From the UHGV virus genome UHGV-1365016: a stretch of DNA of 46,873 nt, one strand, 5' to 3'. The translations under genes and the position numbers were made by a program. Of the stretch, positions 16,606 to 44,700 are shown one piece after another (positions within the stretch are counted from its first letter, which is position 1; the number at the start of each line of letters is the position of its first letter). The notes beneath the pieces were generated by a model that ran no database searches, was not told the DNA's origin, and was given only the letters and a program-made list of their open reading frames with translations. Origin of the DNA: a virus.

Positions 16606-16634
16606 TTGACGTAGAATCACAGCTGATGTAGATT
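16606..16634 (+). promoter_or_regulatory. Sigma70-type early promoter TTGACG-N17-TAGATT built from two tandem copies of the TTGAYGTAGAT element
   Basis: TTGACG at 16606..16611, a 17-bp spacer, and TAGATT at 16629..16634. The first rightward gene starts at 16665. Confidence 0.55.
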
Positions 16635-16664
16635 GAACTCATCGAAACAAACGATGGTGAAGAG

Positions 16665-16810
16665 ATGAAAATCAAAGACCGTGAAGAATTTGAAGATGCA
16701 CAGGCTATGGCGCGCATTGCAGTTAATCGTCAGAACAACAGCATTCCTGCAGATGCATTCTGGAACGCAGCAATGCAGGCTTTAATCTCAGCGTATGGGT
16801 TAAGCAAATG
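16665..16810 (+). CDS. Hypothetical small early protein (48 aa)
   Basis: ATG preceded by a GGTGAAGAG RBS. First ORF after the promoter. Not in the supplied ORF track because it is under 60 aa. Confidence 0.3.
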
Positions 16811-16992
16811 ACAGCAGCATCTTTCTAACTCATCGCCAGTCTGGTTATCGTGGCATTCATCATTATCGCAGTGGCAGTTTCTAAATCAGGGCATAAGGAG
16901 TAACAAAAATGAGCAACTGGCATAACGAGCACATCATGCAGTGGTATCGTCGCCGCATTAAGGAAATCATCAATTCATACGAGGCGTAACAA

Positions 16993-17175
16993 ATGGCAAA
17001 GACTATCTATCGACGCGAGAAGCTGGAACAAGAACTCGGACACGTTGGCGCGCAAAACTTCATGAGCAAGCAGGCACGTCATGCAATGGAATCTGTGCGC
17101 GTAAATCGCGTTTTGCGCGTGTTTAATGGTGAAGGTAAGCGCAGAGTAATGGATGAGCTAATTATCGTATTCTGA
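16993..17175 (+). CDS. Hypothetical early protein
   Basis: 60-aa ORF co-oriented within the early cluster. Confidence 0.3.
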   Translation: MAKTIYRREKLEQELGHVGAQNFMSKQARHAMESVRVNRVLRVFNGEGKRRVMDELIIVF

Positions 17176-17211
17176 CAACGATTCAGCTCTCTTATTTTTA
17201 ATGGTGATGAT

Positions 17212-17445
17212 ATGGCAAAAGTAAAAACATATGAGTTCTGGTTTGTGCAGAACAAAATGTATGCAATCAGGACAATCAAGCGAGTACGCTGGTGGAATAA
17301 GTGGTTAATCCTGTCCGGATGCATTGTGCTGGCAAAGTGCAAATTCAAAGCGGTTGACATCACTGATGAGGATGCGATGAAAATCGCAAAGATTGGGTTT
17401 GAAGAAGATGGCTATTACGAAGAAATTATGGGGGTCAGGGTATGA
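17212..17445 (+). CDS. Hypothetical early protein
   Basis: 77 aa. Its stop overlaps the next start (ATGA). Confidence 0.35.
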   Translation: MAKVKTYEFWFVQNKMYAIRTIKRVRWWNKWLILSGCIVLAKCKFKAVDITDEDAMKIAKIGFEEDGYYEEIMGVRV

Positions 17446-18047
17446 GCAAAATTGACTATCAGGCGCTGAGTGAGGTGGCAGAAAAGGCAACACCAGACGA
17501 ATGGGTCGCATTTATTTCGACGAATACTGGTACTTATGCAGTGCACACGCCAGGTGATGAACGATGCGAAGACGTTATCAAATGGACCGGCTTTGATGGA
17601 CAGAAAAATGCAGGGAACAACGCTCGTCATGTTGCCGCGTTCAATCCAAAGGTTGCACTGGAGCTGCTTGGTGAAATTAAGTGCTTGGAGGACACAAATA
17701 TTGATGCCACGTGCCGAATTTCAGAGCTTGAGACTAATCTCGCGGCACTGGCAGCGGAGAATGCGAGACTGAAGTCTGGCGCTATGGACGAAATCAAGGT
17801 TATCAACCGTGGAGGGCAGGCATATTGTGTAAAAGATGGCGTGCAAGTTAATCCCATGTATGCAAGAGGGTGGAATGACTATCGCGCAAAGTCTCTGCAA
17901 TCAGACACTACAGCCACCGATGCTTTTCTGGCTGAAGTACGGGCGCAGGGCGTGGAGATGTTTGCTGACCATCTGTTGTGCCCAGACCTTGATGACACTA
18001 TCCGTGACTTTGCTGCCCAGCTTCGCAAAGGAGGTGAGCAAAAATGA
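17442..18047 (+). CDS. Ead/Ea22-like protein
   Basis: The central NARHVAAFNPKVALELLGEI and C-terminal coiled region resemble the Ead/Ea22 family found in lambdoid and T1-like early regions. Confidence 0.45.
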   Translation: MSKIDYQALSEVAEKATPDEWVAFISTNTGTYAVHTPGDERCEDVIKWTGFDGQKNAGNNARHVAAFNPKVALELLGEIKCLEDTNIDATCRISELETNLAALAAENARLKSGAMDEIKVINRGGQAYCVKDGVQVNPMYARGWNDYRAKSLQSDTTATDAFLAEVRAQGVEMFADHLLCPDLDDTIRDFAAQLRKGGEQK

Positions 18048-18391
18048 CAATCACAAAACAACGAGTAGAAGAAATCATATCGCGCATTGAAATGTATGGG
18101 CATGGTGCAGGGTATACCGCCGAAGAGGTTTATGACCTTGCTGTATTGGCTCTGAGTTTATCAAATATCGCAAAACTGAAGCGATACGAGCTTGATACTG
18201 GTGGTTGCGACCCATTCAGTCCGAACTGCTGTGCTGACATGACTGAAGACCCTGAAGGCGAATTTGTCATGTTCGACGATGTTATCAGGATTGTTCAGTT
18301 TGACAACACCGCTCAGCAATTCGAAAGTCTCAGCAATCACAATCACCACTTCATCAATGGCACTTGCGTAGAGTGCCTGAAAAGTGAATAG
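18044..18391 (+). CDS. Hypothetical protein
   Basis: 115 aa, overlapping the previous stop. Confidence 0.35.
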   Translation: MTITKQRVEEIISRIEMYGHGAGYTAEEVYDLAVLALSLSNIAKLKRYELDTGGCDPFSPNCCADMTEDPEGEFVMFDDVIRIVQFDNTAQQFESLSNHNHHFINGTCVECLKSE

Positions 18392-18720
18392 CTACCCGTT
18401 CATATTAATTATCAGTGCGCTCTATGTGGCGCACGCTTTAGTGGAGGCATATCAATGAACAATCACCAACGACGCCGATACACCGCTGGCGCTAAAATCT
18501 TTCTTGCTGTTTATGTGCTGGCATTGATGGCGGCTATTGCAGGAGTTTTGCATTATGTTTAACGACATTAGCGACGCAATGCAAAACATGTGGGAACGTC
18601 ACTGGAACAGCATGAAGACGTGTCACTACATGATGGTACAGATAGGTAATTACATTGAGGTTGTTCCAGATAACGGCGTGCACGACATTAAGTGCATGTG
18701 CTCAACGAGGGCTTTCGAAA

Positions 18721-18894
18721 ATGCGAACCACTAAACAGAAAGTCTGGCAGCTCGCCAAACAGCACGAGCTGGATGATTTTATCGCGAAGGTAGCAAAGAC
18801 ATTCCCTGATGCGCTTGAAATCGTTCATGTGCAGACGCAAACAGAAAATGCATGGTGCTATGCTGGCAAGCGTGATAATCATGGTGTACAATAA
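18721..18894 (+). CDS. Hypothetical protein
   Basis: Start chosen at the internal ATG 18721 (MRTTKQKVWQLAKQHELDDF). The upstream part of the tracked ORF is in conflict with the 18537..18734 ORF. Confidence 0.3.
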   Translation: MRTTKQKVWQLAKQHELDDFIAKVAKTFPDALEIVHVQTQTENAWCYAGKRDNHGVQ

Positions 18895-18941
18895 ACGCAT
18901 AACCACCATCGCTTTCACTCATATCATCACCCAACCTTTAA

Positions 18942-18967
18942 CCCGCCTTGTGCGGGTTCTTTTTTAT
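18942..18967 (+). terminator. Rho-independent terminator ending the rightward early cluster
   Basis: CCCGC-CTTGT-GCGGG followed by TTCTTTTTT. Confidence 0.7.
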
Positions 18968-19012
18968 CTGTGTTAAACTAACGATATCGAAATACGAAAA
19001 GACGAAAACAGA

Positions 19013-19459
19013 ATGGCTAATCCAAACCCTGTAATGAAATTTTCCTCTGAGTACCAGCCAGCTGGCAGAGGATTAAGCTACAGAAACAGGCTAATTGAAG
19101 CATTAAAGCGTTGCGGGCTTGGTGAGGAGGAGTTCCTTGACGCATTCATCAGAACGTCAATCAAGATGACTGAGGAAAACCCGACTCAGGGCGTACAGAT
19201 GCTGAAGGAAATATTCCTGCGCATCAGCCCCGTACAAAAAAGCATGGCGCCTCCTGTTAATTTTAAATACCGCAAAGATGCCACGCCAGTAGAGCAGATA
19301 GAGGATGTCATTCAATCTGTTTCCAGTGGGGAGCTTCCAATAGATGTGGCGTCTCAGGTTGTATCAATGATTAAGGTTGGCCTTGACGTGAAAGAATTAA
19401 CCGAACTCGCCGCACGCCTTGAGCGACTGGAGAAACTGCTGGAGCAACAGAATGGATAA
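19013..19459 (+). CDS. Terminase small subunit
   Basis: 148 aa, directly upstream of the large terminase gene, with a helix-rich N-terminus and C-terminal coiled coil (LERLEKLLEQQ). Confidence 0.5.
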   Translation: MANPNPVMKFSSEYQPAGRGLSYRNRLIEALKRCGLGEEEFLDAFIRTSIKMTEENPTQGVQMLKEIFLRISPVQKSMAPPVNFKYRKDATPVEQIEDVIQSVSSGELPIDVASQVVSMIKVGLDVKELTELAARLERLEKLLEQQNG

Positions 19460-19578
19460 GAGCATTATGGCTTGCTTTTTAGCATCAATTATTATGAGCT
19501 TAACAAGCATAACCCTACCAAATAATGATTTTACTGGAAACATCTTTGGCTTGATGTTCTGGTGCACTGGTTGGGTTA

Positions 19579-21024
19579 TTGCATGGGGTTGCACTAGATA
19601 TGGCTCGTAAACGCCTATCCGCTCTGGCAATTGAAAAGCTGGAAGCGCAGATTGATGATGCAATGACAGATGTTGCAGAGTCCGCCATTTTTGGTATCTG
19701 TGATATGCAGAAGAACGTCATTAAGCGGTTAAGGATGACAGCCACTGGCGTTGATGATGTGACTAATGCAACCACTCATGCTGACCACCTGATTCCGGCA
19801 AAGCTGGAGCGCCTGCTTTATCCCAAGCGGTTTAAGTTTGTCTATGGTGGCCGTGGGTCAGGGAAGACGAGAACGATTATCACTATCCTTACTGAGAGAG
19901 CAAGATTCCGGCCTGACCGTTTCGCCTGCTTTCGTGAGATTCAGCAATCAATTGAAGACTCAAGCTATCAGGAGCTTGTTGATGAGATAGCCCGCAAAGG
20001 CGAGTCAGCCGAGTTTCGAGTTATCAACAACGAGATAACGCACAAGAAGACCAAAGCGAAGTTTCGTTTCAAAGGGCTGTATCGCAATCAGACAACCGTT
20101 AAGGGTTTTGCTGGCATTACCGTTGGCTGGGTAGAGGAAGCTGAGAACGTCAGCCAGACAAGCTGGGATATTCTTGTGCCTACCATCCGTGCTGCCAATT
20201 CCGAATTGTGGTGCTCATTCAACCCCAACAAGGAGACTGACCCCACATGGAAAAATTGGATTGCTCCTTACCGCTCACAAATGGTCGATGGCATATTCGA
20301 AAATGACGAAATCCTGATTGTCGAATGTAACTATTCCGACAACCCGTGGTTCTGGGATACGCCACTGCCATCCGCTATGGAGCAAATGAAGCGCGTCGAC
20401 TTTGACCGCTATATGTGGATATGGGAAGGGAAATTTAACAAGCGCAGCGACGAGCAAGTTTTCGGCGGAAAATGGCGCATTGATAACTTTGAGGTCCAAC
20501 CAGAATGGCATGGCCCATATTTCGGGATGGACTTCGGATTCAGTACCGACCCCACCGCAATGGTTGAGGTGTACATCGAAGAATTACCAGGTGGACGGCG
20601 CAACATTTATATTAATCGCGAGTATGGCAAGGTTGGACTTGAGATTACCGATACGCCAGCCGCGATGGAGCAATCATTCCCTATGGCTAAGCGTGCGCGA
20701 TGGTATGCCGACTGCGCGCGACCAGAAACCATCAGTCACATCAAGCGTTCTGGATTTGACATTCACCCATGCACGAAATGGCCCGGTAGCGTTGAGGATG
20801 GCGTTACTTGGCTGCGTGGTTGTGACAGCATTGTCATCCACGAACGATGCAAGGAAATGCAGAATGAAGCGGCAATGTACAGCTACAAGGTTGATAAACT
20901 GACAGGGAATGTGCTGACTGATATTGTCGATGCATTTAACCACTTCTGGGATGCTGTTCGTTACGCGCTCAATGACCACATCGTCCAGCGCGGCAGCGGA
21001 ATGCTAATCCGGCGCAGGCGATAA
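19579..21024 (+). CDS. Terminase large subunit (ATPase plus nuclease)
   Basis: Walker A FVYGGRGSGKT, with Walker B and a C-terminal RNaseH-like nuclease region (DFGFSTDPTAMVEV). 481 aa. Confidence 0.85.
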   Translation: MHGVALDMARKRLSALAIEKLEAQIDDAMTDVAESAIFGICDMQKNVIKRLRMTATGVDDVTNATTHADHLIPAKLERLLYPKRFKFVYGGRGSGKTRTIITILTERARFRPDRFACFREIQQSIEDSSYQELVDEIARKGESAEFRVINNEITHKKTKAKFRFKGLYRNQTTVKGFAGITVGWVEEAENVSQTSWDILVPTIRAANSELWCSFNPNKETDPTWKNWIAPYRSQMVDGIFENDEILIVECNYSDNPWFWDTPLPSAMEQMKRVDFDRYMWIWEGKFNKRSDEQVFGGKWRIDNFEVQPEWHGPYFGMDFGFSTDPTAMVEVYIEELPGGRRNIYINREYGKVGLEITDTPAAMEQSFPMAKRARWYADCARPETISHIKRSGFDIHPCTKWPGSVEDGVTWLRGCDSIVIHERCKEMQNEAAMYSYKVDKLTGNVLTDIVDAFNHFWDAVRYALNDHIVQRGSGMLIRRRR

Positions 21025-21031
21025 AAATAAA

Positions 21032-21047
21032 GCCCTCAATTGAGGGC
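21032..21047. terminator. Hairpin terminator, mainly for the - strand transcript, located between terminase and the 21048 gene
   Basis: GCCCTC-AATT-GAGGGC with an A-rich left flank, which is a U-run on the - strand. Confidence 0.5.
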
Positions 21048-21245
21048 TTAAAGCTCATCTCTCAATCTTGATAGATCACTCACAGCTGCGTACATGTTTG
21101 ATTTAATGCGTTCAGACTTCTCATCTCTGCATCTGTCTTTTATTATCGAAATGGCAATATTGAAAGCCTCAATCTTTGCCTCCCTTATCGCTTGATTCCT
21201 TGGTTTCACTTTCGCCTTCGGTATTTCACGAAGGCATCTCGGCAT
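21048..21245 (-). CDS. Hypothetical protein (65 aa)
   Basis: The MPRCLREIPKAKVK... reading starts at an ATG right after the stop of the upstream small gene. The tracked 117-aa TTG-start ORF probably fuses two genes. Confidence 0.3.
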   Translation of the reverse strand: MPRCLREIPKAKVKPRNQAIREAKIEAFNIAISIIKDRCRDEKSERIKSNMYAAVSDLSRLRDEL

Positions 21246-21249
21246 GTAA

Positions 21250-21405
21250 TTAGTAGGCATTTGATGGGTAGTAACCTTCTTTGATACCAAGCATCTTGGC
21301 GACTGTTGGGCCAACTTTCTGGGCGGTAACAATGCCAAATTTAACGTAGTCAGCGCCATAAGTTTTAGCAATGTACGCTTCGCATTCTTTTTTAGTCTCA
21401 AACAT
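21250..21405 (-). CDS. Hypothetical protein (51 aa)
   Basis: ATG-start ORF MFETKKECEAYIAKTYGADYVKFG... in a different frame from the tracked TTG-start ORF. It lies immediately downstream of a - strand promoter. Confidence 0.3.
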   Translation of the reverse strand: MFETKKECEAYIAKTYGADYVKFGIVTAQKVGPTVAKMLGIKEGYYPSNAY

Positions 21406-21439
21406 TTCTCTTGTTCCTTAATCTCTTTTCGATAAGATG

Positions 21440-21467
21440 ATTCTACGTCACCAACATATCTACGTCA
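21440..21467 (-). promoter_or_regulatory. Leftward sigma70-type promoter TTGACG-N16-TAGAAT formed by two tandem ATCTACGTCA copies
   Basis: On the - strand, the -35 TTGACG is the reverse complement of 21462..21467 and the -10 TAGAAT is the reverse complement of 21440..21445. Confidence 0.5.
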
Positions 21468-21506
21468 ACATTTATTATTGTTGTTGATAAATCTGCATCA
21501 CCACAC

Positions 21507-21535
21507 TTGACCAATCTACACCGAGCGCATAGTAT
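21507..21535 (+). promoter_or_regulatory. Rightward sigma70-type promoter TTGACC-N17-TAGTAT with motif copies in the spacer and at +1
   Basis: TTGACC at 21507..21512 and TAGTAT at 21530..21535. AATCTACACC lies in the spacer and ATCTACATCA overlaps the -10 and the start site. The gene starts at 21566. Confidence 0.55.
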
Positions 21536-21565
21536 ATCTACATCAGGCTTATCGGAGATATCACT

Positions 21566-21772
21566 ATGCGCAGCTATGCAGGATTCACACAGGAGGAAAA
21601 AGAGCAGGTTTATTCACTGGCGCGGGCTGGTGTGCCTGATGATGTGATTTGCCGTCGGTATGATATCGACGAGGATTTCCTGCTGCGCGTTCTGGATGAT
21701 GTTTTCGTTAACCTGCAAGAGAAGCGCGGGTACAAGGGTATCTGCTGCAAGAATGATTTTTTGAGAGGGTGA
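21566..21772 (+). CDS. Hypothetical protein with a helix-turn-helix-like segment (candidate regulator)
   Basis: 68 aa. YSLARAGVPDDVICRRYDIDEDFL resembles a small HTH. Confidence 0.3.
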   Translation: MRSYAGFTQEEKEQVYSLARAGVPDDVICRRYDIDEDFLLRVLDDVFVNLQEKRGYKGICCKNDFLRG

Positions 21773-22023
21773 TTATGGGTGGTCGAGGAAGCTGTAGAAG
21801 GAAGAGATCTTTAAGGTGTAGCAGGTGCTATAACGAAAACATCAGTAACTACATTTTAGGGCTTGGTGGTATTGTTTGGGAAAACGTCGATGCTGTAAAG
21901 AGGGTTGGAAATTATTACTTTTGCAGATGCCGAAATTGCGGCCATGAGTATAAAACAAACAGTTTAGCAGCGCGCAGGGACTACAGGTTTAACAGCAATG
22001 ACAAATTCGAAAAGGTGGAGTGA
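21769..22023 (+). CDS. Zinc-ribbon protein
   Basis: CSRC...CRCRNCGH Cys pairs. 84 aa. Confidence 0.3.
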   Translation: MIMGGRGSCRRKRSLRCSRCYNENISNYILGLGGIVWENVDAVKRVGNYYFCRCRNCGHEYKTNSLAARRDYRFNSNDKFEKVE

Positions 22024-22683: not shown

Positions 22684-22693
22684 CCATGCTATA

Positions 22694-22720
22694 ATCCCTC
22701 CATCGTGAGGGATTTTTTTA
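22694..22720 (+). terminator. Rho-independent terminator or attenuator upstream of the portal gene
   Basis: ATCCCTC-CATCGT-GAGGGAT followed by TTTTTTT. A TGCTATAAT extended -10-like element at 22687..22695 overlaps it. Confidence 0.6.
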
Positions 22721-22727
22721 TTGGTGA

Positions 22728-25077
<2,350 letters not shown>

Positions 25078-26038: not shown

Positions 26039-26209
26039 TTAATATATTCAACAATCTCGCATTCACGCAGCTGCACCAGACCAAATGGTGCGACCACCTT
26101 GCCGCACGGACGTACCTTGATTTGCTCTAGGCCGAACACTCCGCAGCGTCCGTTTTCTTTGAATTTGACCATTACCATGCTTTCTTCCTCACTACATCAC
26201 TTGATGTAG

Positions 26210-26239
26210 ATACTATGCACCACCACTCAATCTACGTCA
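26210..26239 (-). promoter_or_regulatory. Leftward sigma70-type promoter TTGACG-N18-TAGTAT within an inverted pair of TTGAYGTAGAT elements
   Basis: On the - strand, the -35 is the reverse complement of 26234..26239 and the -10 is the reverse complement of 26210..26215. The partner element TGATGTAGAT lies at 26203..26212. Confidence 0.45.
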
Positions 26240-26249
26240 ATACCTGCTG

Positions 26250-26258
26250 TGGTAGAAT
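26250..26258 (+). promoter_or_regulatory. Extended -10 promoter TGGTAGAAT for the lysis cassette
   Basis: TG-n-TAGAAT lies 27 nt upstream of ATG 26285, which has an AGGAGG RBS. Confidence 0.45.
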
Positions 26259-29377: not shown

Positions 29378-29412
29378 ATTTACTACTCCTTCTCGAAAAA
29401 CATCTTGACGTT

Positions 29413-29446
29413 TCTACGTCACTTAGTCAATACTTATTGACGTAGA
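29413..29446. promoter_or_regulatory. Perfect 9-bp inverted repeat TCTACGTCA-N16-TGACGTAGA in the divergent promoter region (candidate operator built from the promoter element)
   Basis: Seen directly in the sequence. TTGACG at 29405 and TTGACGTAGATT at 29436 are adjacent. Confidence 0.5.
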
Positions 29447-29475
29447 TTGTACCACAACGGAAAAGGTGATGTGGA

Positions 29476-30098: not shown

Positions 30099-30350
30099 AT
30101 GACTGCACCATATATGCCAATGATGAATGACAACGGGTTGCTGGAGTGCCCATTCTGCGGCTGTAATGAGGTTGGTATTGCTGTCGATGAGGATGGGTGG
30201 GAGTACATTGAGTGCGGTGATTGCTATTGCCGTACAGACGCATTCCGTAACAGAGAACTAATGACTAAGTCATGGAACACCAGAAATGGCCATCTCTACA
30301 CCGCAGAAGACTTCAATCAGGCAGCCGAGGAGCGCGAACATGGACTATAA
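30099..30350 (+). CDS. Lar-family-like zinc-ribbon protein (putative restriction alleviation)
   Basis: LLECPFCGCNEVGIAVDEDGWEYIECGDCYCRTDAF. The CPFCG...C..C arrangement resembles the Lar restriction-alleviation family. Confidence 0.4.
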   Translation: MTAPYMPMMNDNGLLECPFCGCNEVGIAVDEDGWEYIECGDCYCRTDAFRNRELMTKSWNTRNGHLYTAEDFNQAAEEREHGL

Positions 30351-30828
30351 ATCACAAATCATGCGCGTGATTATCAATCATCCAGGCGCAACGCGCGCAT
30401 ACATTGAGAAGCATTGCGGCGGTAAGCATTCAAGCACAACAACGCATCGTTTGCATGAGATGCTCGCATTGGGATTCATTCGCCGCGAGAAGTCAGTGAT
30501 TCGTGGTGGCAAGTGGCAGTATAAATATTTCATCTCTGATGATGCAGCGGGTATTGATGATGCTATCCGGTGTCATTTGCTGGACAATGCTGGCGCTGAG
30601 GTGAAAGAAATCAGCGCATCCACTGACATTGATTACCGAATCGTGAAAAGCCGCATCCGCATTATGTTTCATAACGGTGATGTAACGCGAAGCTATGACC
30701 ACCACAAGAAGCTATGGCGTTACTCATGGCGTGAGCAGGAGGTTAACGTCGGCAACATGTTTAATTCACTTCTTCGCAACGCAAGAGGTTATCATGGGAA
30801 AAGCGAAACGCAAGAAGCAAGAGTATGA
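30340..30828 (+). CDS. Winged-helix-like DNA-binding protein (candidate regulator)
   Basis: Start at ATG 30340, overlapping the upstream stop. IMRVIINHPGATRAYIEKHCGGKHSSTTTHRLHEMLALGFIRRE resembles a MarR/wHTH. Confidence 0.3.
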   Translation: MDYKSQIMRVIINHPGATRAYIEKHCGGKHSSTTTHRLHEMLALGFIRREKSVIRGGKWQYKYFISDDAAGIDDAIRCHLLDNAGAEVKEISASTDIDYRIVKSRIRIMFHNGDVTRSYDHHKKLWRYSWREQEVNVGNMFNSLLRNARGYHGKSETQEARV

Positions 30829-32305: not shown

Positions 32306-32314
32306 TGTTATAAT
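32306..32314 (+). promoter_or_regulatory. Extended -10 promoter TGTTATAAT in front of the protease/capsid block
   Basis: TG-n-TATAAT lies 31 nt upstream of ATG 32345. Confidence 0.45.
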
Positions 32315-36860: not shown

Positions 36861-36863
36861 TTT

Positions 36864-37272: not shown

Positions 37273-37467
37273 TCATAGCTTAACCCAACCACATCCGCGA
37301 ACGTTGCGCACAAAACCTTTCTTTTTCAGTGCCTGCATCCTCCGATCAATAACCGTAATGTTTCTAACATCATCACGAAACTTAAGCCATATATCAAAAA
37401 CAGGAGTTGGTTTAACAGAAAGCATGTGCAATATCTTCAAGTCCAACTCTTCATACTTACTCATCAC
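37273..37467 (-). CDS. Hypothetical basic protein
   Basis: 64 aa. Start/stop overlaps the ParB-like gene. Confidence 0.3.
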   Translation of the reverse strand: MMSKYEELDLKILHMLSVKPTPVFDIWLKFRDDVRNITVIDRRMQALKKKGFVRNVRGCGWVKL

Positions 37468-38273
37468 ATCTTCTCCAGAATTGCCATAACCTCATGAATA
37501 TCAGCAACAGGAATCTGAATAAATTCCTCATCCTCTGCCACTACATGACCAGCGGGAAGAATCACATGGTCAGCTGGCTTCAATAACTCAATCAGGCGGT
37601 CTACTGGCTTAATCTTTTTCGACTTCAGCACTTTTGCCGTGACCTTATCCTTGCCTTGCGCCTTCGCTTCTTCAACTGCCTCGTCGATAACTTTAACCGC
37701 ATCGTCACCATGCTCACGCGTCACTGCAACGGCATTTGCATAACTGATTTGCCCGGCATTGATTCGCGCTTTAACTTCCGCTGGCACATCACCTAATGAC
37801 AGGTGCATCTGCACATCAGAGACTGAGCGGCCTACCTTTTTGGCTATTTCTTCATTAGTCCAGCCAAATCCTTTCAGTCGCGTGTAAGCCTTTGCGCGCT
37901 CAAACGGGTCAAGCTGCTTACCCTGACTGGATGACACCATAAAAGCAATTTTGTCAGCCTCGTCGCCAGTAAAGTCCTTACACTCGATGCGAACGATTGG
38001 TGCGCCACGCTCAATGGCACGCAATGCGCCGAGATAGCGGTGCTGACCATCAAGGATGCGAATGCCTTTCTCATCGGGGATAACCGTTAATGCTGGTAAT
38101 GGCTGACCTGATTCCCAGCACTGCGCGAAATATTCCACATGCTGCTCATCTGCTTCACGGATGTTGTATCCCGGCTCCAGATAGATTTGTTCCACTGGCA
38201 CGAGATAGGTTTTGTTAACAGCGATGCCGTTGCGAGTTTCTTTGTCTGAATAGATTTTGCTGAGTGTCTTCAT
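37464..38273 (-). CDS. ParB-like nuclease domain protein with C-terminal HTH
   Basis: ParB-N signature ILDGQHRYLGALRAIERG and an HTH segment NEEIAKKVGRSVSDVQMHLSL. 269 aa. Confidence 0.6.
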   Translation of the reverse strand: MKTLSKIYSDKETRNGIAVNKTYLVPVEQIYLEPGYNIREADEQHVEYFAQCWESGQPLPALTVIPDEKGIRILDGQHRYLGALRAIERGAPIVRIECKDFTGDEADKIAFMVSSSQGKQLDPFERAKAYTRLKGFGWTNEEIAKKVGRSVSDVQMHLSLGDVPAEVKARINAGQISYANAVAVTREHGDDAVKVIDEAVEEAKAQGKDKVTAKVLKSKKIKPVDRLIELLKPADHVILPAGHVVAEDEEFIQIPVADIHEVMAILEKM

Positions 38274-38276
38274 TGT

Positions 38277-39181: not shown

Positions 39182-39203
39182 TTATTGTTGTTTCTACGTC
39201 ATT

Positions 39204-39232
39204 ACTATAAACGCGCCATCAATCTACATCAA
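39204..39232 (-). promoter_or_regulatory. Leftward sigma70-type promoter TTGATG-N17-TATAGT containing an ATCTACATCAA element
   Basis: On the - strand, the -35 is the reverse complement of 39227..39232 and the -10 is the reverse complement of 39204..39209. A second element, TCTACGTCA, lies at 39193..39201. Confidence 0.45.
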
Positions 39233-39398
39233 CTGGAATATGCTAAAATCATGCTAATCAAACAACAGGAGATTTAAGCATGGGTTCAACAAACGGTCCG
39301 TCTCGTTCACGCGCTACTGGCAACACCAAAACCGGCGGCAAAACTGGCGCAGTGAAGCCAAACGGCTCTACCCGCTCACCATCGCGCGGTAAAAAATA

Positions 39399-39839
39399 AT
39401 GTTCGGCGCAGACATTGCCATCATGATCATGTATGTGCTTGGTTTTGCCTGCACAGGCATGGTCGCGTTTCTGGTGTTCATTCCGGCAATGGTGATGTCT
39501 GTGTATCTTGGATGGGTGCTTGTTGATTCATTTCCCGCCGAATATCTGTATTACCTTGCGCAGTCTATGGTTTGGTTGTTTCCGGCTATTGCGCTGCGCA
39601 AAAGTACAAAGATGGCGCTCTGCGTGCTAACAATGAGCCTTTACGAATGGCTGGTTGCGATAGAGTCATTCGTATGGGAATTTATCACGCCTGTAGAAAC
39701 GCCGCTTCATGCGCAGTACGCATTTATTATTATCGGCATCCATCTGTTCATCCTTTCCATCACTTTTAAATGGGGCGGCGAAATTGGACATTATTCTTGG
39801 CGTGGTCGCCATTGTTTTTTCGCTGATTCAAATCTATAA
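39399..39839 (+). CDS. Polytopic membrane protein
   Basis: 146 aa with at least 4 hydrophobic helices. Confidence 0.4.
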   Translation: MFGADIAIMIMYVLGFACTGMVAFLVFIPAMVMSVYLGWVLVDSFPAEYLYYLAQSMVWLFPAIALRKSTKMALCVLTMSLYEWLVAIESFVWEFITPVETPLHAQYAFIIIGIHLFILSITFKWGGEIGHYSWRGRHCFFADSNL

Positions 39840-39871
39840 GTGCTGGAAACATATCATCAGCGAGACACGCA

Positions 39872-40156
39872 ATGAACGGGACACTAAGGCAAGTCGCAGA
39901 GCAGATTATAAGCGGAACGACAGGACAGGTGATTGATAAGGCTGGATATGCTTCTATTGGCACAGGTATCGGTCTGAAGGTTGCAGAGCAAACACCTGTC
40001 ACGCAATCTTATTTTGAGGCTATGATTCCACACAGCCTGACAGAGTGGGCGGCAGTGGCGTCAATCCTCGGCGCTCTGTCTCTGGTAATAAAGAATCTGT
40101 TTGAGATGTGGTGGAAAGTCCGGGAGTCAAAGAAAAATGACAGCACCAACACCTGA
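39872..40156 (+). CDS. Small membrane protein (holin-like topology)
   Basis: 94 aa with one C-terminal transmembrane helix (WAAVASILGALSLVIKNLF) and a charged tail. Confidence 0.3.
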   Translation: MNGTLRQVAEQIISGTTGQVIDKAGYASIGTGIGLKVAEQTPVTQSYFEAMIPHSLTEWAAVASILGALSLVIKNLFEMWWKVRESKKNDSTNT

Positions 40157-40529
40157 AGAACTTGTCAGCCAGATGGCATCGCGCGGGATGACCATCACCA
40201 CAACGGATGCGTCTGGCATTCTGTGCCTTGTGGCATCAATCAGCGAATGCCTTGAGCTGAACTATCCAAATGATGAATGCCGACAAAATGCGATCATGCT
40301 GTGGGCTTCCATCCTGATTAGCGCAAATACCGCAGGGCGCTACGTCACCAGTCAGAGCGCACCTTCTGGCGCATCGCAATCATTCGCGTATGGCAGTAAG
40401 CCGTGGGTGGCGCTGTACAATCAGATGAAACTACTGGATACAGCAGGGTGTACTGGCGATTTGGTGGAAGATCCTGACGGAAGCGGTAAACCGTGGTTTG
40501 CAGTTGTGCGTGGGAGTAAGTGCAAATGA
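40137..40529 (+). CDS. Head-tail connector / head completion protein
   Basis: Start at ATG 40137 (MTAPTPEEL). Position in front of the tail completion genes. Confidence 0.35.
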   Translation: MTAPTPEELVSQMASRGMTITTTDASGILCLVASISECLELNYPNDECRQNAIMLWASILISANTAGRYVTSQSAPSGASQSFAYGSKPWVALYNQMKLLDTAGCTGDLVEDPDGSGKPWFAVVRGSKCK

Positions 40530-40867
40530 CTTCGCTGGCTCGGTTTTCCTACACGCAGCCATGCACCATCTGGCATAAAAGCGGCACTGACAAGTACGGC
40601 AAGCCAACTTTTGACGCACCAGTGAGCATCATGTGCGACTATGGCTTTAACGATGATGTATCGACCGATGCGAAAGGCAATGAGATTGTGCAGAAGAATA
40701 CTTTCTGGACAGAATACACTGGCGCGAAGGTTGGTGATTACATCATGATTGGCACGGTAACAGATGCTGACCCGCTGGTGGCTGGCGCAAACCAGATTCT
40801 GAATGTGATTAACTACGGATCAACTTTCAACAGGGCAGAGCCACCTGACTTTGCCCTTGTAACATGA
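40520..40867 (+). CDS. Head-tail joining protein
   Basis: 115 aa with overlapping start, conserved position. Confidence 0.35.
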   Translation: MQMTSLARFSYTQPCTIWHKSGTDKYGKPTFDAPVSIMCDYGFNDDVSTDAKGNEIVQKNTFWTEYTGAKVGDYIMIGTVTDADPLVAGANQILNVINYGSTFNRAEPPDFALVT

Positions 40868-41368
40868 TTACGATCTGAAAAACTCACCAAAATGCTTAAG
40901 CGCCGCTTTGTCATATGCGGCCTTAGCTTCTTCTGCCGTTTCGTAATGACCAAGGCAAGTCACTAATCCATTAATCCTTATATTGGCAACAAATCTTAGC
41001 TTGCAATCAATTCTCTCTGAGACGCCTTTTATGCCAAGCCTATTTCTTTTATGAACCTTAACATTTCTGCAATTCTCTTCTCTTGTTGCCGCTCGTAGAT
41101 TACAAATTCTGTTGTCTGTTTTTATCCCATTAATGTGATCAATTTCATTTTCTGGCCACTCTCCATATACATATAACCAAGCTAATCTATGGGCAAGGTA
41201 GTCTTTGTAATCAATAGCTATTCTGATATACCCTTGGTTATGTGGCCTTCCTGCTGTGGAGCCAGCTTTTACTGGGCCTCTGCCTTTCTTCCATGTAAAA
41301 ACACCAGTTTCACTATTGTAAATTAATTTCTGCTTAAGTCTCTCAACGGTCAGCATGTTTAACTCCAA
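40868..41368 (-). CDS. HNH homing endonuclease (paralogue of 11960..12607)
   Basis: ETGVFTWKK...AHRLAWLYVYGEWPENEIDHINGIKTDNRICNLRAATREEN plus an AP2-like C-terminus GIKGVSERIDCKLRFVANIRINGLV. It is inserted anti-sense between the head-tail genes. Confidence 0.75.
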   Translation of the reverse strand: MELNMLTVERLKQKLIYNSETGVFTWKKGRGPVKAGSTAGRPHNQGYIRIAIDYKDYLAHRLAWLYVYGEWPENEIDHINGIKTDNRICNLRAATREENCRNVKVHKRNRLGIKGVSERIDCKLRFVANIRINGLVTCLGHYETAEEAKAAYDKAALKHFGEFFRS

Positions 41369-41520
41369 AGGGAAACGCCCCTGTCAGGTGGAACATGGTT
41401 GCAACAAAACCATACTGACAAGGGCGTTAAATTCATTGTTGCTTGTGCGTCGTTTCGGGTTCCACGCCTACGTGACAATTCAATGGTATACTTCAACAAT
41501 AGAATTTGCAAGGGTATAAA

Positions 41521-41919
41521 ATGCCAGCGAAATTAAGAGGCGTCCGCCAAGCCGTAGAAAGAACATCGCAAATTGTGGATGAGATAATCGCCACGAAAGC
41601 GGTGCGTGCAATCAAGTCAGCGACATACATCATCCGCACCGAATCAGCCACGCTAACGCCAATTGATACATCAACACTAATTAACAGTCAGTTTGATACC
41701 GTGGAAGTTAGCGGGACGCGAATCACTGGCAAGGTTGGCTATTCCGCGAAATATGCGCTGTATGTCCATAACGCCAGTGGCAAACTCACAGGTAAACCAC
41801 GCAGCAATGGTAACGGCGCGTATTGGAGTCCTGGAGGTGAGCCGCAATTCCTGACCAAAGCAGCACAACGCACAAAAGACCTTGTCGATAGCGTGATTAA
41901 GAAGGAGATGAAACTGTGA
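41521..41919 (+). CDS. HK97 gp10-family head-tail adaptor / tail completion protein
   Basis: Pattern AIKSATYIIRTESATLTPIDTSTLINS...GKVGYSAKYALYVHN, typical of the gp10 family. Confidence 0.5.
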   Translation: MPAKLRGVRQAVERTSQIVDEIIATKAVRAIKSATYIIRTESATLTPIDTSTLINSQFDTVEVSGTRITGKVGYSAKYALYVHNASGKLTGKPRSNGNGAYWSPGGEPQFLTKAAQRTKDLVDSVIKKEMKL

Positions 41920-42290
41920 ACATGCTTGAACTGGTTGATACATATCTTCAAGATGCCGGATTGTATGATGGTTGGACATCGCAGTTGCAGTTCTGGAATG
42001 ACACCGGAGATGGAAGCGAGCAATTTATTGTCCTGCAATCAAATGGTGGCACGCAGGTGATGGATGACCTCGGCGGTGACTTCTATTTCTCGTTGTATAT
42101 TGTCGGTAAACATGGTCAATACAACGTGGCGGATGTTGACGCTAAGGCGCTGGAGATTATCGAACACATCAAAACGCACCCGATTGATTCATGCGTGAAC
42201 TACATTCAGTTGCAGGCGCCACTCGGAAGGCCGATGCTGACGGAAGAAAAAAGACCAGTGCATGAACTGCTATTGCGTGTTGTGAAATAA
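41916..42290 (+). CDS. Tail terminator / minor tail protein
   Basis: 124 aa, with overlapping start. Last gene before the terminator and tRNA. Confidence 0.35.
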   Translation: MNMLELVDTYLQDAGLYDGWTSQLQFWNDTGDGSEQFIVLQSNGGTQVMDDLGGDFYFSLYIVGKHGQYNVADVDAKALEIIEHIKTHPIDSCVNYIQLQAPLGRPMLTEEKRPVHELLLRVVK

Positions 42291-42293
42291 ATA

Positions 42294-42316
42294 AAGCCGC
42301 ACGAGGCGGCTTTTAA
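42294..42316 (+). terminator. Rho-independent terminator
   Basis: AAGCCGC-ACGAG-GCGGCTT followed by TTAATAT. Confidence 0.6.
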
Positions 42317-42318
42317 TA

Positions 42319-42395
42319 TGGTGGACACGGACGGATTTGAACCTTCAATCAGCCGATTATGAGTCGGTTGCTTTAACCAATTAAGCTACGCGTCC
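42319..42395 (-). tRNA. tRNA-Met (anticodon CAT; elongator Met or lysidine-dependent Ile2 type), with CCA encoded
   Basis: The reverse complement folds as a 77-nt cloverleaf. The acceptor stem is GGACGCG/CGTGTCC with one G-U pair. The D-arm is GCTT-AATTGGTTA-AAGC. The anticodon loop is CTCATAA, with U33 and A37. The T-loop is TTCAAAT and the 3' end is ACCA. There is one A-G mismatch in the T-stem. Confidence 0.75.
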
Positions 42396-42574
42396 ATAAG
42401 TGCTGGTTTAAGCATTGCCAGCGTGCTTTCTTAATATCCAGCCCCGTAACCCATACATACCCCTACATATGATTGCGATAATGATGGATATTAAGTGTTG
42501 TGTCGTTTCGCGATTAACTGAAACTGGCATAACAATGGATGCAAACCTATCCAAATAATCAAGATGGCATTAAC

Positions 42575-42657
42575 ACAACGATAAGAGCACTGCTGCAACA
42601 ATGTTGGATTTGGTATGCTAAGCCAGTCAACATCCAATGCTCTTACCTGTTGTGTGT
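42575..42657. repeat. Hairpin repeat unit A (ACAACGATAAGAGCACTG ... CAATGCTCTTACCTGTTGTGTG)
   Basis: TAAGAGCACTG and CAATGCTCTTA are inverted, forming an 11-bp stem with 1 mismatch that encloses about 40 nt. ACAACG and CTGTTGT flanks extend the stem. Confidence 0.5.
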
Positions 42658-42758
42658 TGTTGATGATTGCGCCATTCTCATCTTCAAGGTCAACGCCTCG
42701 CCAGCCCAGCATGATAATCTACCGTTGAGATAATCAATCATCATGTATGGCCTTGCTG

Positions 42759-42838
42759 GTAACAACGGTAAGAGCACTGGCTAACCAGGCGCGCCGACTC
42801 TTCACGATTATCGACTCAATGCTCTTACCTGTTGTGTG
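42759..42838. repeat. Hairpin repeat unit B (ACAACGGTAAGAGCACTG ... CAATGCTCTTACCTGTTGTGTG)
   Basis: Direct copy of unit A. The ends are identical, including a 22-nt 3' arm, and the loop sequence is different. Confidence 0.5.
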
Positions 42839-42910
42839 CCTATTATTAATCATAGCCGGCCACTAAGTAGATTTTAATCTACACCACAAAATAATCACTG
42901 TCAACACCTG

Positions 42911-42919
42911 TGATATAAT
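42911..42919 (+). promoter_or_regulatory. Extended -10 promoter TGATATAAT for the major tail protein gene
   Basis: Preceded by GTCAACAC at 42900 and AATCTACACC at 42876, with the same 24-nt offset as at 44661/44685. ATG at 42956. Confidence 0.5.
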
Positions 42920-42955
42920 CACCACGTTAGCAGCTAACACAATTCGGAGATCGAA

Positions 42956-43672
42956 ATGGCTATTTGTGCAAATGATAAAGGCGTTCTGGTCGGTCGCATG
43001 ACCCGACTGTTCCTTGCTGAGGGGTGCGGTGACGCAGTTCCTGATGCAGAAGACTGGAAGTATTTAGGTTCAACCACCAGTAAAGGCGTGGACTACTCAC
43101 CGCAGACTACCACGTCGGAAGCGGATACAGCTGGCGGCTTTGTTTCCACTCTCGTTACCAGCTCTGATATGACCATCAGCGCAGAGGTTGAAATCCGCAA
43201 GAATGACCCAAGCGATGAGTTTGGCTTCCATCGTCTGGTTGAGATTTACGCCACTGAACTGAAAGCGCGTCGTCAGCCTTCCTTGTGGGTGCGTGAGGTG
43301 ACTGGTGCAACTATCGTTACCGCGTATTGCAACATCACCAGCATCAGTTATGAAGGTGGCACGAACGACATCGTTACTGGCAGCCTTGAGTTCAAAGTTT
43401 ACGATTCTGACAGCGTTACCGTCGAAAGCCTTGAACCTCTGGCGTTCACTACCGACCTGCAATCAACTGGCAGCACTGGCAGCCCATTAACCGTTGCTGT
43501 TGAAGGTGGCGTCGCACCGTACACTTACGTATGGCGCAAAGATGGCGTGGTTGTTGGCGGTGAGTCTGGCGCAACACTGGCAAGCCCAACAGCTGGCGTG
43601 TACACAGTTACCGTTACCGACTCATCTACTGACCCGGAAATTATTATCAGTACGGCATGCACTGTATCCTGA
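42956..43672 (+). CDS. Major tail protein with C-terminal Ig-like (Big_2-type) domain
   Basis: 238 aa. The C-terminal PLTVAVEGGVAPYTYVWRKDGVVVGGESGATLASPTAGVYTVTVTD is an Ig-like fold motif. A bidirectional terminator follows it. Confidence 0.6.
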   Translation: MAICANDKGVLVGRMTRLFLAEGCGDAVPDAEDWKYLGSTTSKGVDYSPQTTTSEADTAGGFVSTLVTSSDMTISAEVEIRKNDPSDEFGFHRLVEIYATELKARRQPSLWVREVTGATIVTAYCNITSISYEGGTNDIVTGSLEFKVYDSDSVTVESLEPLAFTTDLQSTGSTGSPLTVAVEGGVAPYTYVWRKDGVVVGGESGATLASPTAGVYTVTVTDSSTDPEIIISTACTVS

Positions 43673-43678
43673 TAAAGA

Positions 43679-43698
43679 AAAGCCCCGAAAGGGGCTTT
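43679..43698. terminator. Bidirectional rho-independent terminator
   Basis: AAGCCCC-GAAA-GGGGCTT with A-run before and T-run after. Confidence 0.7.
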
Positions 43699-43701
43699 GG
43701 T

Positions 43702-43968
43702 TTATTCTTGTGGCGGTTCCGGCAGTGGCATCCAGTGTGTGGCATTACTAATCAAGCCATATTCATTAGTTTGAGGGTGATTGCCGCGCCCATCTCCGTA
43801 TTTAAAACTCTCCATAAAGCCATAATGTTTATCCCCGTCAATGCTCACAAAGCCGTAATAAGCAGGTATAACGCCGATCTCACACGTAACCAGCAAAGGA
43901 AAACCAGTTCTCCAATTTAGTTCGCCGATTTCCGGCATCCGCTCACTACACCTAATCCACTGGCTCAT
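43702..43968 (-). CDS. DUF551-like phage protein
   Basis: N-terminal MSQWIRCSERMPEIGE... resembles the W-I...P-E start of DUF551. Moron position. Confidence 0.3.
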   Translation of the reverse strand: MSQWIRCSERMPEIGELNWRTGFPLLVTCEIGVIPAYYGFVSIDGDKHYGFMESFKYGDGRGNHPQTNEYGLISNATHWMPLPEPPQE

Positions 43969-44104
43969 ATCACCTTATCCTCATCAAAAATCACACCAAT
44001 AACGCGAAGCAAGTCTTTCGCCATCTGCTCTGCTTCTTCGTAATCGTAACCTGCATCAACATACAGTTCAGTATAGAAAATCAGGTCGGCTTTTGTTTGT
44101 TCGT

Positions 44105-44299
44105 TCATTTCTTGTCGTCACTCTTAACCAATGCCCAAACAAGTGCTGCAACCCACCCAACAAAGCTCCATCCGACAAGAATATTCAGCACACAGATTGC
44201 GGTCGTATTTGTGTGCTTTCTCTGCAATGCCACAAAAGATGGCAGAAGGTACGCAAATATCACCAAACCAGCAAAAAACAACAAAATAACAACGTCCAT
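44105..44299 (-). CDS. Superinfection immunity (Imm family) small membrane protein
   Basis: MDVVILLFFAGLVIFAYLLPSFVALQRKHTNTTAICVLNILVGWSFVGWVAALVWALV is characteristic of the Imm superinfection-immunity family. Start at the internal ATG 44299. Confidence 0.5.
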   Translation of the reverse strand: MDVVILLFFAGLVIFAYLLPSFVALQRKHTNTTAICVLNILVGWSFVGWVAALVWALVKSDDKK

Positions 44300-44331
44300 A
44301 GCTAACCTCAATTGTTAATAACTTGTTTATA

Positions 44332-44625
44332 TCACATGCCATTCTTTTCGCACAAAGAAACAGCCACATCACGCAATTGTTCTTTGGTCATATCCTTGCG
44401 TGCATAAACCATTTCTACGATAGCAAGGCCGATTATTTCTGCTGATTCGTTGTTTTTTGTTGACCCCCTAACTACCACCTCGGCAAGATTCTTGCTGATA
44501 CCGTTATCTCGAGCATCGGCAGTGCTCATGGCAATTTCTCCGATGTTTTTGCACATCTCTGAAGTCGCACTAACAGCAAAAGAAGAAGCCAACAGAACAG
44601 ACGCAATCAACATTTTAATTTTCAT
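44332..44625 (-). CDS. Secreted or periplasmic protein with signal peptide
   Basis: MKIKMLIASVLLASSFAVSATSE is a signal peptide. The mature part is about 75 aa with 2 Cys. Confidence 0.4.
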   Translation of the reverse strand: MKIKMLIASVLLASSFAVSATSEMCKNIGEIAMSTADARDNGISKNLAEVVVRGSTKNNESAEIIGLAIVEMVYARKDMTKEQLRDVAVSLCEKNGM

Positions 44626-44700
44626 AACTCACCTCATTCATCACTAGTTTCGATGACCTGAATCTACATCACCACCTCGCAGGTGTCAACACTACTGAGA

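Follow-up and report, generated by a model that had tools for sequence, protein, structure and literature searches.

A reiterated asymmetric 12-mer as the probable signature of early promoters in a Skatevirus-like siphophage

UHGV virus genome UHGV-1365016 was analysed over its whole length of 46,873 nucleotides (the window), in which a short box, TTGAYGTAGAT, recurs in the gaps between genes. The box is very probably, with a probability of roughly 0.85 as judged from sequence, the signature of a class of early (and probably also middle) promoters that depend on sigma70. Within it, TTGAYG, close to the -35 consensus, runs straight into TAGAWT, which can serve as a -10, and the host sigma70 polymerase would use the box in three registers. 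It would provide the -10 when TTGACA or TTGACG stands 17 bp upstream; it would provide the -35 when a -10 follows 17 bp downstream; or it would fall, in either orientation, within the spacer or across the start site of a different sigma70-type promoter. Conservation covers the entire box, also the half for which sigma70 would have no use and the copies that lack the essential T of a -10, and for this reason a second reader was proposed. At odds a little short of even, a sequence-specific protein of the phage may also recognise the box as a whole and occupy the early promoter cores.

The window was ~88% identical to Skate, swi2, SeSz-2, DS8 and similar siphophages over ~60% of a 12-kb probe and is, on this comparison, the circularly permuted whole genome of a Skatevirus-like virulent siphophage (Salmonella/E. 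coli). The circular permutation of a complete genome was deduced from the tape-measure gene, which spans the window ends (45446-46873 joined to 1-948) when read against annotated relatives. The same synteny divides the genome into ~17 short transcription units of alternating direction. The predicted early units encode an anti-restriction protein, Lar, a superinfection-immunity protein and replication/recombination genes, and the predicted late units encode structural and lysis genes. A synteny-guided (block-guided) gene map was used; a greedy map of open reading frames (ORFs) was discarded for its wrong strand assignments. The cluster of such phages was treated as Skatevirus and its relatives in the BASEL paper (PMC11990801).

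Exact matches to TTGAYGTAGAT number six in the window, against 0.09 expected. With up to one mismatch, 12 matches were found against 1.78 expected, a count that was reached in 0 of 100 shuffles. This was the scan called for by an earlier, sequence-only reading of the window, in which the element had been located by eye. Each coordinate listed there holds a copy, within one base, although two of them (9615 and 12652) fall outside the span of 16606-44671 that the reading gave for the element. The core TGAYGTAGA is present in 14 exact copies, at 9616, 12652, 21442, 21459, 21537, 26231, 29413, 39193, 39223 and 44663 on the minus strand, and at 16607, 16624, 26202 and 29438 on the plus strand. These are joined by six or seven intergenic one-mismatch variants (minus strand, 9626, 21492, 21513-21522, 26191, 42878 and 44709; plus strand, 29467), and together they occupy ten gene gaps. 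Eleven of the 14 exact copies are intergenic, in 9.1% of the genome (binomial P = 9e-10). The other three lie in a doubtful reverse ORF, 16502-16717 (minus strand), and in the opening codons of a primase ORF that had been extended too far, and with corrected starts at 16665 and 12680 all 14 become intergenic, as the sequence-only reading had maintained.

The box was also recovered by a k-mer scan without any prior: GACGTAGA, TGACGTAG and TGATGTAG were among the top over-represented 8-mers of the window. Box 8-mers were likewise at the top in SB28 and in Klebsiella phage YX3973, but not in the unrelated phage 9NA, which was rejected as a relative because it belongs to a different group and has 0 box copies. 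A logo built from 257 distinct flanks in 45 genomes or loci had sharp edges and defined a 12-mer, t-TGAYGTAGA-W-W, in which the only conserved positions beyond the 9-mer are the T before it (62%) and the two Ws after it. The 12-mer is asymmetric and not self-complementary. Its copies are spread over ten gaps across 35 kb, and do not form an iteron-type cluster at one locus beside replication genes.

A consensus scan placed the best sigma70-like sites of the window on boxes. Three sites match the consensus at 10 of 12 positions (21468-21440, 44689-44661 and 42904-42876), and three match at 9 of 12 (16606-16634, 26240-26212 and 39232-39204). Paired -35 and -10 hexamers, 16-18 bp apart, were found at the promoters designated PE, PF, PH, PL, PN and PP, and at the promoter at 9616. 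PE, on the plus strand before unit E, is built of two copies: copy 1 (TTGACGTAGAAT, 16606-16617), fully conserved in 25 distinct relatives, carries the -35 (TTGACG), and copy 2 (cTGATGTAGATT, 16623-16634) carries the -10 (TAGATT), 17 bp past the TTGACG of copy 1. PF (21440-21468, minus strand), before the variable unit F, reads TTGACG-N17-TAGAAT and matches the consensus at 10 of 12 positions, with the -35 in copy 1 (TTGACGTAGATA, 21457-21468) and the -10 in copy 2 (gTGACGTAGAAT, 21440-21451). Tandem pairs 17 bp apart form the best sigma70-type sites of the window, in line with the sequence-only proposal that tandem copies make sigma70 promoters; the spacer of PF had been given as N16 (21440-21467), one base short.

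Elsewhere, one copy is combined with a separate hexamer. PN (42876-42904, minus strand; 10/12), which lies before small ORFs and a tRNA-Met, consists of TTGACA (42899-42904), N17 and the variant copy gTGGTGTAGATT (42876-42887). PP (44661-44689, minus strand; 10/12) consists of TTGACA (44684-44689), N17 and the copy gTGATGTAGATT (44661-44672), with a near-copy, cTGATGTTGATT, close by at 44707-44718. At the leftward promoter PH, the copy TTGACGTAGATT (26229-26240, minus strand) is the -35, followed by N17 and CATAGT (26212-26217). PL precedes a unit of anti-restriction, EaC-like, ParB-like and RusA genes; its copy 1 (TTGATGTAGATT, 39221-39232, minus strand) is the -35, followed by N17 and TATAGT (39204-39209), and its copy 2 (aTGACGTAGAAA, 39191-39202, minus strand) covers about -4 to +8. 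The spacer between copy 1 and TATAGT is variable, and both copies are kept even in Klebsiella phage YX3973. The internal promoter at 9614-9642 (minus strand) combines TTGCCT (9637-9642) and the variant TTGATGTGGATT (9624-9635) with a copy, TTGATGTAGATT (9614-9625), as the -10. It lies upstream of a 65-aa gene and the exonuclease VIII-recombinase-SSB genes, and this copy is co-oriented with the operon.

The registers were quantified with 87 copies from seven complete genomes. A -35 scoring at least 4/6 was found 16-18 bp (mostly 17) upstream of TAGAWT for 27 of the 87, a 2.4-fold enrichment over a background of 12.7%. For 24 of the 87, a good -10 lies at 17 bp downstream of TTGAYG, a 4.8-fold enrichment over a background of 5.8%. 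The copies in the -35 register are nearly always TTGACG, and those in the -10 register are mostly nTGATG; this specialisation indicates that sigma70-related selection acts on top of the box. The remaining 36 copies have neither partner hexamer. The box does not conform to an extended -10: with TAGAWT taken as the -10, A and Y occupy positions -15/-14, where an extended -10 has T and G, and the logo places TG at -17/-16 and Y-G at -14/-13.

The copies without partners were found in three places. Some lie in the spacer just past a TTGACN hexamer (PB, PJ, PK and PG), some lie 0-3 nt past a -10 (PL in direct orientation; PG, PH and PC in reverse; PA with a near-copy), and some belong to a subtype, TGACGTAGAAAC, without the essential last T of a -10 (T-7). 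Copies of this subtype sit 2-3 nt past TATAGT and are conserved from Salmonella to Klebsiella phages. At every non-late promoter that could be defined, the stretch from -35 to about +8 holds one or two copies, which may point either way.

PG, on the plus strand, has TTGACC (21507-21512), N17 and TAGTAT (21530-21535). Three minus-oriented copies surround it: a degenerate one (gTGATGCAGATT, 21490-21501) lies upstream of the PF copies in the same orientation, a variant (GGTGTAGATT, 21513-21522) falls, on the plus strand, within the PG spacer, and a third (cTGATGTAGATA, 21535-21546) comes directly after the PG -10. The three copies are invariant in 33 relatives, including those without a leftward gene. 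In the cassette at 26189-26240 (H/I), the PH copy is accompanied by an opposite-strand copy (TTGATGTAGATA, 26201-26212, plus strand), at about -6 to +5 of PH, and by a variant (gTGATGTAGTga, 26189-26200, minus strand); the cassette is conserved in 32 relatives next to an unrelated left flank. The J/K cassette (29402-29448) contains the copies gTGACGTAGAAA (29411-29422, minus strand) and TTGACGTAGATT (29437-29448, plus strand) with the hexamers TTGACG (29405-29410), TTGACT (29425-29430, minus strand) and AATACT (29429-29434). Both copies and both TTGACN hexamers are kept in 29 relatives. Upstream of the replication/recombination operon, the PB region (12639-12667, minus strand) is composed of TTGACG (12662-12667), a single a, the copy TGATGTAGAAT (12650-12660; as a 12-mer, 12650-12661), cattg and TAATTT (12639-12644). 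The PB copy lies 1 nt past the -10 of PC, a plus-strand promoter with TTGATT (12620-12625), N17 and TACAAT (12643-12648).

Two of the copy pairs had been regarded as operator-like palindromes. The J/K pair is indeed a perfect 9-N16-9 inverted repeat (29413-29446), but in the other proposed palindrome (given as 26203-26239; 26202-26239 here) the Y position is not the same in the two arms. Both direct and inverted pairs occur, with spacings of 10, 17, 17, ~24, 25, 29 and 30 bp. With an asymmetric box, variable spacings and both orientations, the palindromes do not serve as evidence for a classical dimeric operator, and the box has neither the two-fold symmetry nor the fixed half-site spacing of such a site.

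Comparison with relatives showed that constraint on the box exceeds the hexamers. Box density is 0.2-0.6 copies/kb in every relative examined, at orthologous positions, and orthologous copies are kept in more than 40 relatives, Klebsiella phages included; conservation in related phages, named beforehand as a footprinting check, was thus borne out. In the six gaps that were aligned (21, 26, 29, 39, 42 and 44), the box and neighbouring promoter hexamers are conserved and the spacers and flanks change. For PE, a footprint was made from 25 distinct upstream segments, which were anchored on the downstream gene with the motif ignored. Both 12-mers were at maximal information, the 6-nt linker was variable and the upstream flank was nearly uninformative. 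The TAGAAT after the -35 and the TGATG before the -10 are therefore as constrained as the hexamers, in agreement with the earlier proposal that conservation extends beyond them.

Reverse copies persist without any gene on their strand in DS8-type genomes and in the outgroup contig L171. Lineage-specific genes have boxes of their own: SB28 carries copies before an anti-repressor-like gene and a homing endonuclease (L045 18155, 30002 and 30023), Akira has its own copy at the helicase promoter (L046 3687), and the boxes of these insertions sit in otherwise unrelated upstream DNA. Known sigma70 contacts explain the hexamers but not the TGA at -17 to -15 or the G at -13, nor the non-consensus G in TAGAWT, the TAGAWW that follows a -35, or the copies without T-7, and a phage factor was therefore sought. 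Among the readings considered here, only recognition by a phage protein would explain why the box occurs in three registers and both orientations, why some copies lack T-7 and why others are antisense to both neighbours.

A second promoter class was recognised in front of the units that have no co-oriented box. All of these are preceded by an extended -10 on the plus strand, TGnTA(T/G/A)AAT, without a -35. The sites are TGCTATAAT (22687-22695) for the portal unit, TGGTAGAAT (26250-26258) for lysis, TGTTATAAT (32306-32314) for the head, TGCTAAAAT (39241-39249) for head-tail genes, and TGATATAAT for both the major tail gene (42911-42919) and the tail operon (44701-44709); a weaker one, TGTTAAACT, lies at 18971 before the small terminase gene. 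The raw count of this element is not enriched (9 vs 6.6 expected), and it is informative by strand and position only: the plus strand holds all nine, six of which stand directly before late units. In relatives the late sites are invariant, and conservation starts at the TG even where the upstream DNA is unrelated. In four gaps, just 6-11 bp separate the -35 of a leftward early promoter from the TG of its rightward late neighbour: 9 nt for lysis and PH, 8 nt for head-tail and PL, 6 nt for the major tail gene and PN, and 11 nt for the tail operon and PP. Two polymerases could presumably not bind both back-to-back promoters at once.

This layout suggests how a phage reader of the box might act. 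A phage protein bound between -35 and +10 of all early promoters would shut them off, and with the early promoters occupied or silenced, the adjacent late promoters, which are independent of a -35, would be freed. It is a speculative and rather doubtful extension of this model that a monomer-reading phage factor, suited to an asymmetric site of 9-12 bp, switches the genome from -35-dependent early to extended -10 late promoters. A possible component of such a switch, as a sigma-4 mimic or a polymerase adaptor, is the 68-aa protein encoded at 21566-21772 (plus strand), whose modelled fold is LuxR/sigma-region-4-like.

Three candidate binding proteins were considered. The 68-aa protein is found in 206 of 207 phage records with a portal protein at least 60% identical, and its gene is always next to the portal gene and is kept in the minimal 36.7-kb genome of a seszw derivative. 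The smallest viable derivative in the seszw genome reduction has this size (PMC9825161; record MZ375355). It retains all box promoters. The 68-aa family is small, with 16 members among 1.84 billion representatives, and searches returned no Pfam hit and no PDB sequence hit. The second candidate, a MarR-like winged-helix protein (30340-30828, plus strand), is present wherever the region is covered, Akira excepted, and is ~35% identical in Klebsiella phages, whose box is the same. Only its N-terminal winged helix was modelled with confidence, the C-terminal half having a pLDDT below 50, and the idea, formed by eye, of a tandem winged helix was not supported. The third, a ParB/KorB-type helix-turn-helix (HTH) protein (37464-38273, minus strand), is 98-99.6% identical in amino acids across Skate-like phages, whose genomes are only ~88% identical in DNA, and ~81% identical in Klebsiella relatives. 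Searches of Pfam and PHROGs gave no MotA-, AsiA- or sigma-like protein.

Several observations weigh against a phage reader of the box. None of the three candidates is established as the binder. The MarR-like protein, which the sequence-only reading had put forward as a regulator, remains unproven in that role, and was rejected as the binder: Akira, without the gene, has 14 boxes, and the viable derivative seszw_300L.2 (MZ375355), from which it was deleted, has its boxes intact. The ParB-like gene is retained in the 36.7-kb derivative, yet it was lost in the natural isolate SB28, where 14 boxes remain, some of them new and placed before lineage-specific genes; in addition, phage ep3 encodes a 50%-identical homologue and has no such motif. 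The 68-aa protein, the other regulator suggested earlier, is likewise unproven. Its model (pLDDT 82) resembles the tetrahelical HTH domains of NarL, GerE, DosR and ArdK only weakly (E >= 0.17), and direct DNA binding is doubtful, since the protein is net acidic and so is its third, putative recognition helix. The spacing and orientation of the copies show no helical phasing, and in divergent gaps any copy in reverse orientation might just as well belong to a promoter of the opposite strand. An overlapping inverted repeat or hairpin accounts in part for the invariance of the PG region and weakens the argument from copies that have no gene to drive. Literature searches by motif, clade names and transcriptomes found no 5'-end or expression-timing data for any clade member.

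The hairpin in question is an inverted repeat at 21525-21569 (GCGCATAGTATATC and GAGATATCACTATGC), in which the PG -10 region pairs with the ribosome-binding site and start codon of the 68-aa gene, with a fold of -18.6 kcal/mol (z = -2.5). In read-through transcripts the start of the 68-aa gene would be masked, and PG transcripts would begin between the repeat arms. In the outgroups L170, L171, L173 and L175, this arrangement of the repeat is kept with a different sequence.

These outgroup contigs were identified through distant members of the 68-aa family, none of which was found in viral contigs; they were found in assemblies. In each of them, the 68-aa homologue is encoded just upstream of the portal gene. 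TGAYGTAGA is absent from the longest contig, L171. This contig has its own enriched word, TAGTAGAT(W), a box variant TAGTAGATW, all four copies of which are intergenic (P = 2e-4). The word is used in TTGACT-N17-TAGATT, as a reverse copy past the -10 of the promoter before the 68-aa homologue (a co-directional gap), and beside a TGATATAAT upstream of the portal gene. This single contig suggests that GTAGATW and the two-class design predate the clade, and that the 5' part of the box is lineage-specific. A differing 5' part is what co-evolution with a phage factor would be expected to give. Phage ENT47670 was rejected as an outgroup, being a temperate phage with only head genes in common.

One possibility is that the 12-mer is simply a module optimised for the host sigma70 holoenzyme, spread by duplication or recombination and kept for promoter strength, with the reverse and orphan copies acting as -35-poor promoters for the other strand or for upstream starts. 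This explanation is somewhat unlikely, but much of the evidence fits it: both halves match sigma70 hexamers, partners at exactly N17 occur far above background, TTGACG and nTGATG are specialised by register, the sequence downstream of PE, PP and PF is held in common in a way that suggests shared ancestry, nearly all copies are directed at a gene, and no binding protein was found. It leaves unexplained the bases that known sigma70 contacts do not fix (TGA at -17 to -15, G at -13 and TAGAWW past the -35), the invariance of the non-consensus G of TAGAWT, and the conservation across genera of TGACGTAGAAAC copies without T-7. Nor does it account for the 36 of 87 copies without a partner hexamer, for antisense copies that persist in co-directional gaps, or for an outgroup 5' part that differs even though the hosts are presumably enterobacteria too. 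Less probable still is a factor-dependent promoter, in which the 12-mer at -18 to -7 would be self-sufficient and independent of a -35, and would be used by the host polymerase with a phage specificity factor, which could work by sigma appropriation or activation, in concept much as T4 MotA/AsiA do, or could mimic sigma region 4; the partner-less copies would then be middle promoters. The box covers exactly -18 to -7, the copies at 29438, 29413, 12652, 26202 and SB28 18155 sit 20-45 nt before a ribosome-binding site without a -35, the replication operon (PB) has a partner-less copy, and all clade members encode a small, acidic and helical protein whose fold is LuxR/sigma-4-like. On this model, however, copies would not be expected at -35, in the spacer and at +1, the TAGAAA subtype would make a poor -10, conserved TTGACN hexamers flank the partner-less copies of gap 29 at promoter-like spacing, and the Pfam and PHROGs searches returned nothing resembling MotA, AsiA or a sigma factor.

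It is very improbable that the boxes are only linkers at module boundaries, kept through recombination and functioning through their ordinary hexamers alone. Breakpoints do fall at the 3' edge of the box (at least eight gene sets after PF; PN; the left flank of gap 26), and exonuclease VIII and annealing proteins are encoded by these phages. However, 12 bp is very short for homologous exchange, the box edges are sharp with unrelated flanks on both sides at several sites, lineage-specific genes have gained a box in otherwise unrelated promoter sequence, and the box is identical between Salmonella and Klebsiella subclades that differ at neutral positions. An equally remote explanation is that the box is the site of a host transcription factor or nucleoid protein used by the phage. 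The counter-evidence for all three phage candidates favours it, as does the fact that Salmonella, Escherichia, Shigella and Klebsiella have most global regulators in common; the different 5' part of the outgroup argues against it, and to our knowledge the box is unlike the E. coli consensus sites of CRP, FNR, NarL, OmpR, PhoB, EvgA, DnaA and IHF, among others. A role at the RNA level is unlikely, because a box in the -10 register would precede the transcript start and no promoter further upstream is conserved. In Rfam covariance searches of the window, the box matched no structured RNA family.

Recognition of the box by a phage protein, on top of its use by sigma70, has partial parallels. The nearest analogue is the L5-type system of cluster A mycobacteriophages (L5 gp71 and the TipsytheTRex repressor), in which an asymmetric 13-mer is present in more than 20 copies and is bound by a monomeric two-domain repressor (PMC9283540). 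Like L5 operators and stoperators, the box is a short, asymmetric, intergenic site, with some 20 or more copies genome-wide, and its asymmetry does not suit a classical dimer. In L5 too, the site at Pleft shares bases with a -35-like hexamer. Two defining features of that system set it apart. L5 sites lie between co-directional genes with an orientation strictly tied to transcription, whereas only one copy pair (9614-9635) in the window is in a co-directional gap, and it is itself a promoter; and L5 has a known monomeric immunity repressor of a temperate phage, for which no counterpart is established. In contrast to L5, the phages studied here are virulent, their copies are confined to promoter cores in both orientations, and the box doubles as a -35 or -10. 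The box was not described in the literature searched; a prior mention in the E1 genome paper is possible.

In phage phi29, protein p4 binds inverted repeats and contacts the alpha subunit of the polymerase, and the promoter A3, which has no -35, is activated. As with A2b/A2c-A3, early and late promoters are back to back, so that early occupancy would favour late transcription; unlike in phi29, the late promoters here are of the extended -10 type (TGnTATAAT, which the box does not fit) and no activator is known. KorB of plasmid RK2 binds 12 palindromic OB sites, and ArdK of R388 is also a global plasmid repressor with iterated operators. The likeness lies in one short motif in many promoters of one mobile element and in an encoded ParB/KorB-type HTH protein, but the box is not palindromic, and SB28 keeps its boxes while missing the ParB-like protein. 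T4 early and middle promoters resemble the box promoters in being conserved well beyond the hexamers and in falling into classes by timing. The T4 MotA box, however, is fixed at about -30 and replaces the -35, whereas the present box occurs in several registers, from -35 to +8, and in both orientations.

A collection-wide scan for tandem boxes found no independent lineage that carries the box. Candidate lineages among non-clade contigs with 4-9 copies were rejected as coding tandem repeats of the Asp-Val-Asp type. The IMG/VR contigs L117, L127, L152, L154 and L166 contain many TGAYGTAGA words that come from Asp-Val-Asp-rich tandem peptide repeats, a trap for pattern scans.

Further features were noted along the genome. 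Mosaic breakpoints coincide exactly with the outer edge of the box at 21402-21440, 26170-26200 and 42840-42876 and at the orthologous sites in L005-L047; at least eight unrelated gene sets lie downstream of PF copy 2 across relatives, and cargo is also swapped after PN and left of the H/I cassette. From these comparisons, the promoter cassettes look like fixed sockets into which differing early genes are plugged. A second box, CATCGAAAC(nnnn)GATG, is common to PE and PP and, more weakly, PF (16640-16656, 44639-44655 and 21426-21434), its CATCGAAAC part lying at 16640-16648 (plus strand) after PE copy 2 and also following the PP copy. It starts ~5 nt past the 12-mer, at the predicted 5' end of the transcript, where its sequence could form a small 5' stem. 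The portal late promoter, TGCTATAAT, is embedded in an intrinsic-terminator hairpin (22693-22714), whose left arm it overlaps; early transcripts from upstream would stop at the hairpin, and late ones would start inside it. A similar terminator (18940-18958) followed by TGTTAAACT at 18971 is found at the small terminase gene.

The start of the primase gene is most likely ATG 12680 (ribosome-binding site AGGAAG), rather than 12647, and the first gene of unit E is an unlisted 48-aa ORF at 16665-16811. The minus-strand ORFs within 45472-46761 are artefacts, and those at 15935-16129, 16252-16440 and 16502-16717 look spurious. Between units D and E, adjoining the replicative helicase gene, ~650 bp of AT-rich non-coding DNA (15940-16600) was found, and five of the genome's eight TTCGCCC/GGGCGAA words are clustered at 16156-16542; this region may be a replication origin. 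The tRNA-Met (42319-42395, minus strand) was the sole match of Rfam covariance models in the window.

The clade comprises ~200 sequenced phages of Salmonella, E. coli, Shigella and Klebsiella, most of whose genes are annotated as hypothetical, and it includes candidates for biocontrol or therapy, members of the BASEL collection and a genome-reduction chassis. In this clade, as in the window, practically all predicted early promoters would carry the box. The box and the extended -10 class together provide a sequence-based early/late map, which corrects several gene starts and explains the many orientation switches. The map predicts which units are early (host take-over, anti-restriction and replication) and which are late, and would be useful for phage engineering. 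The use of one 12-mer as a -35, a -10 or a spacer/+1 element is an unusual economy, and points to a regulator or a polymerase cofactor. If a monomer-reading switch factor does exist, it would represent a new kind of early/late switch in virulent enterobacterial siphophages.

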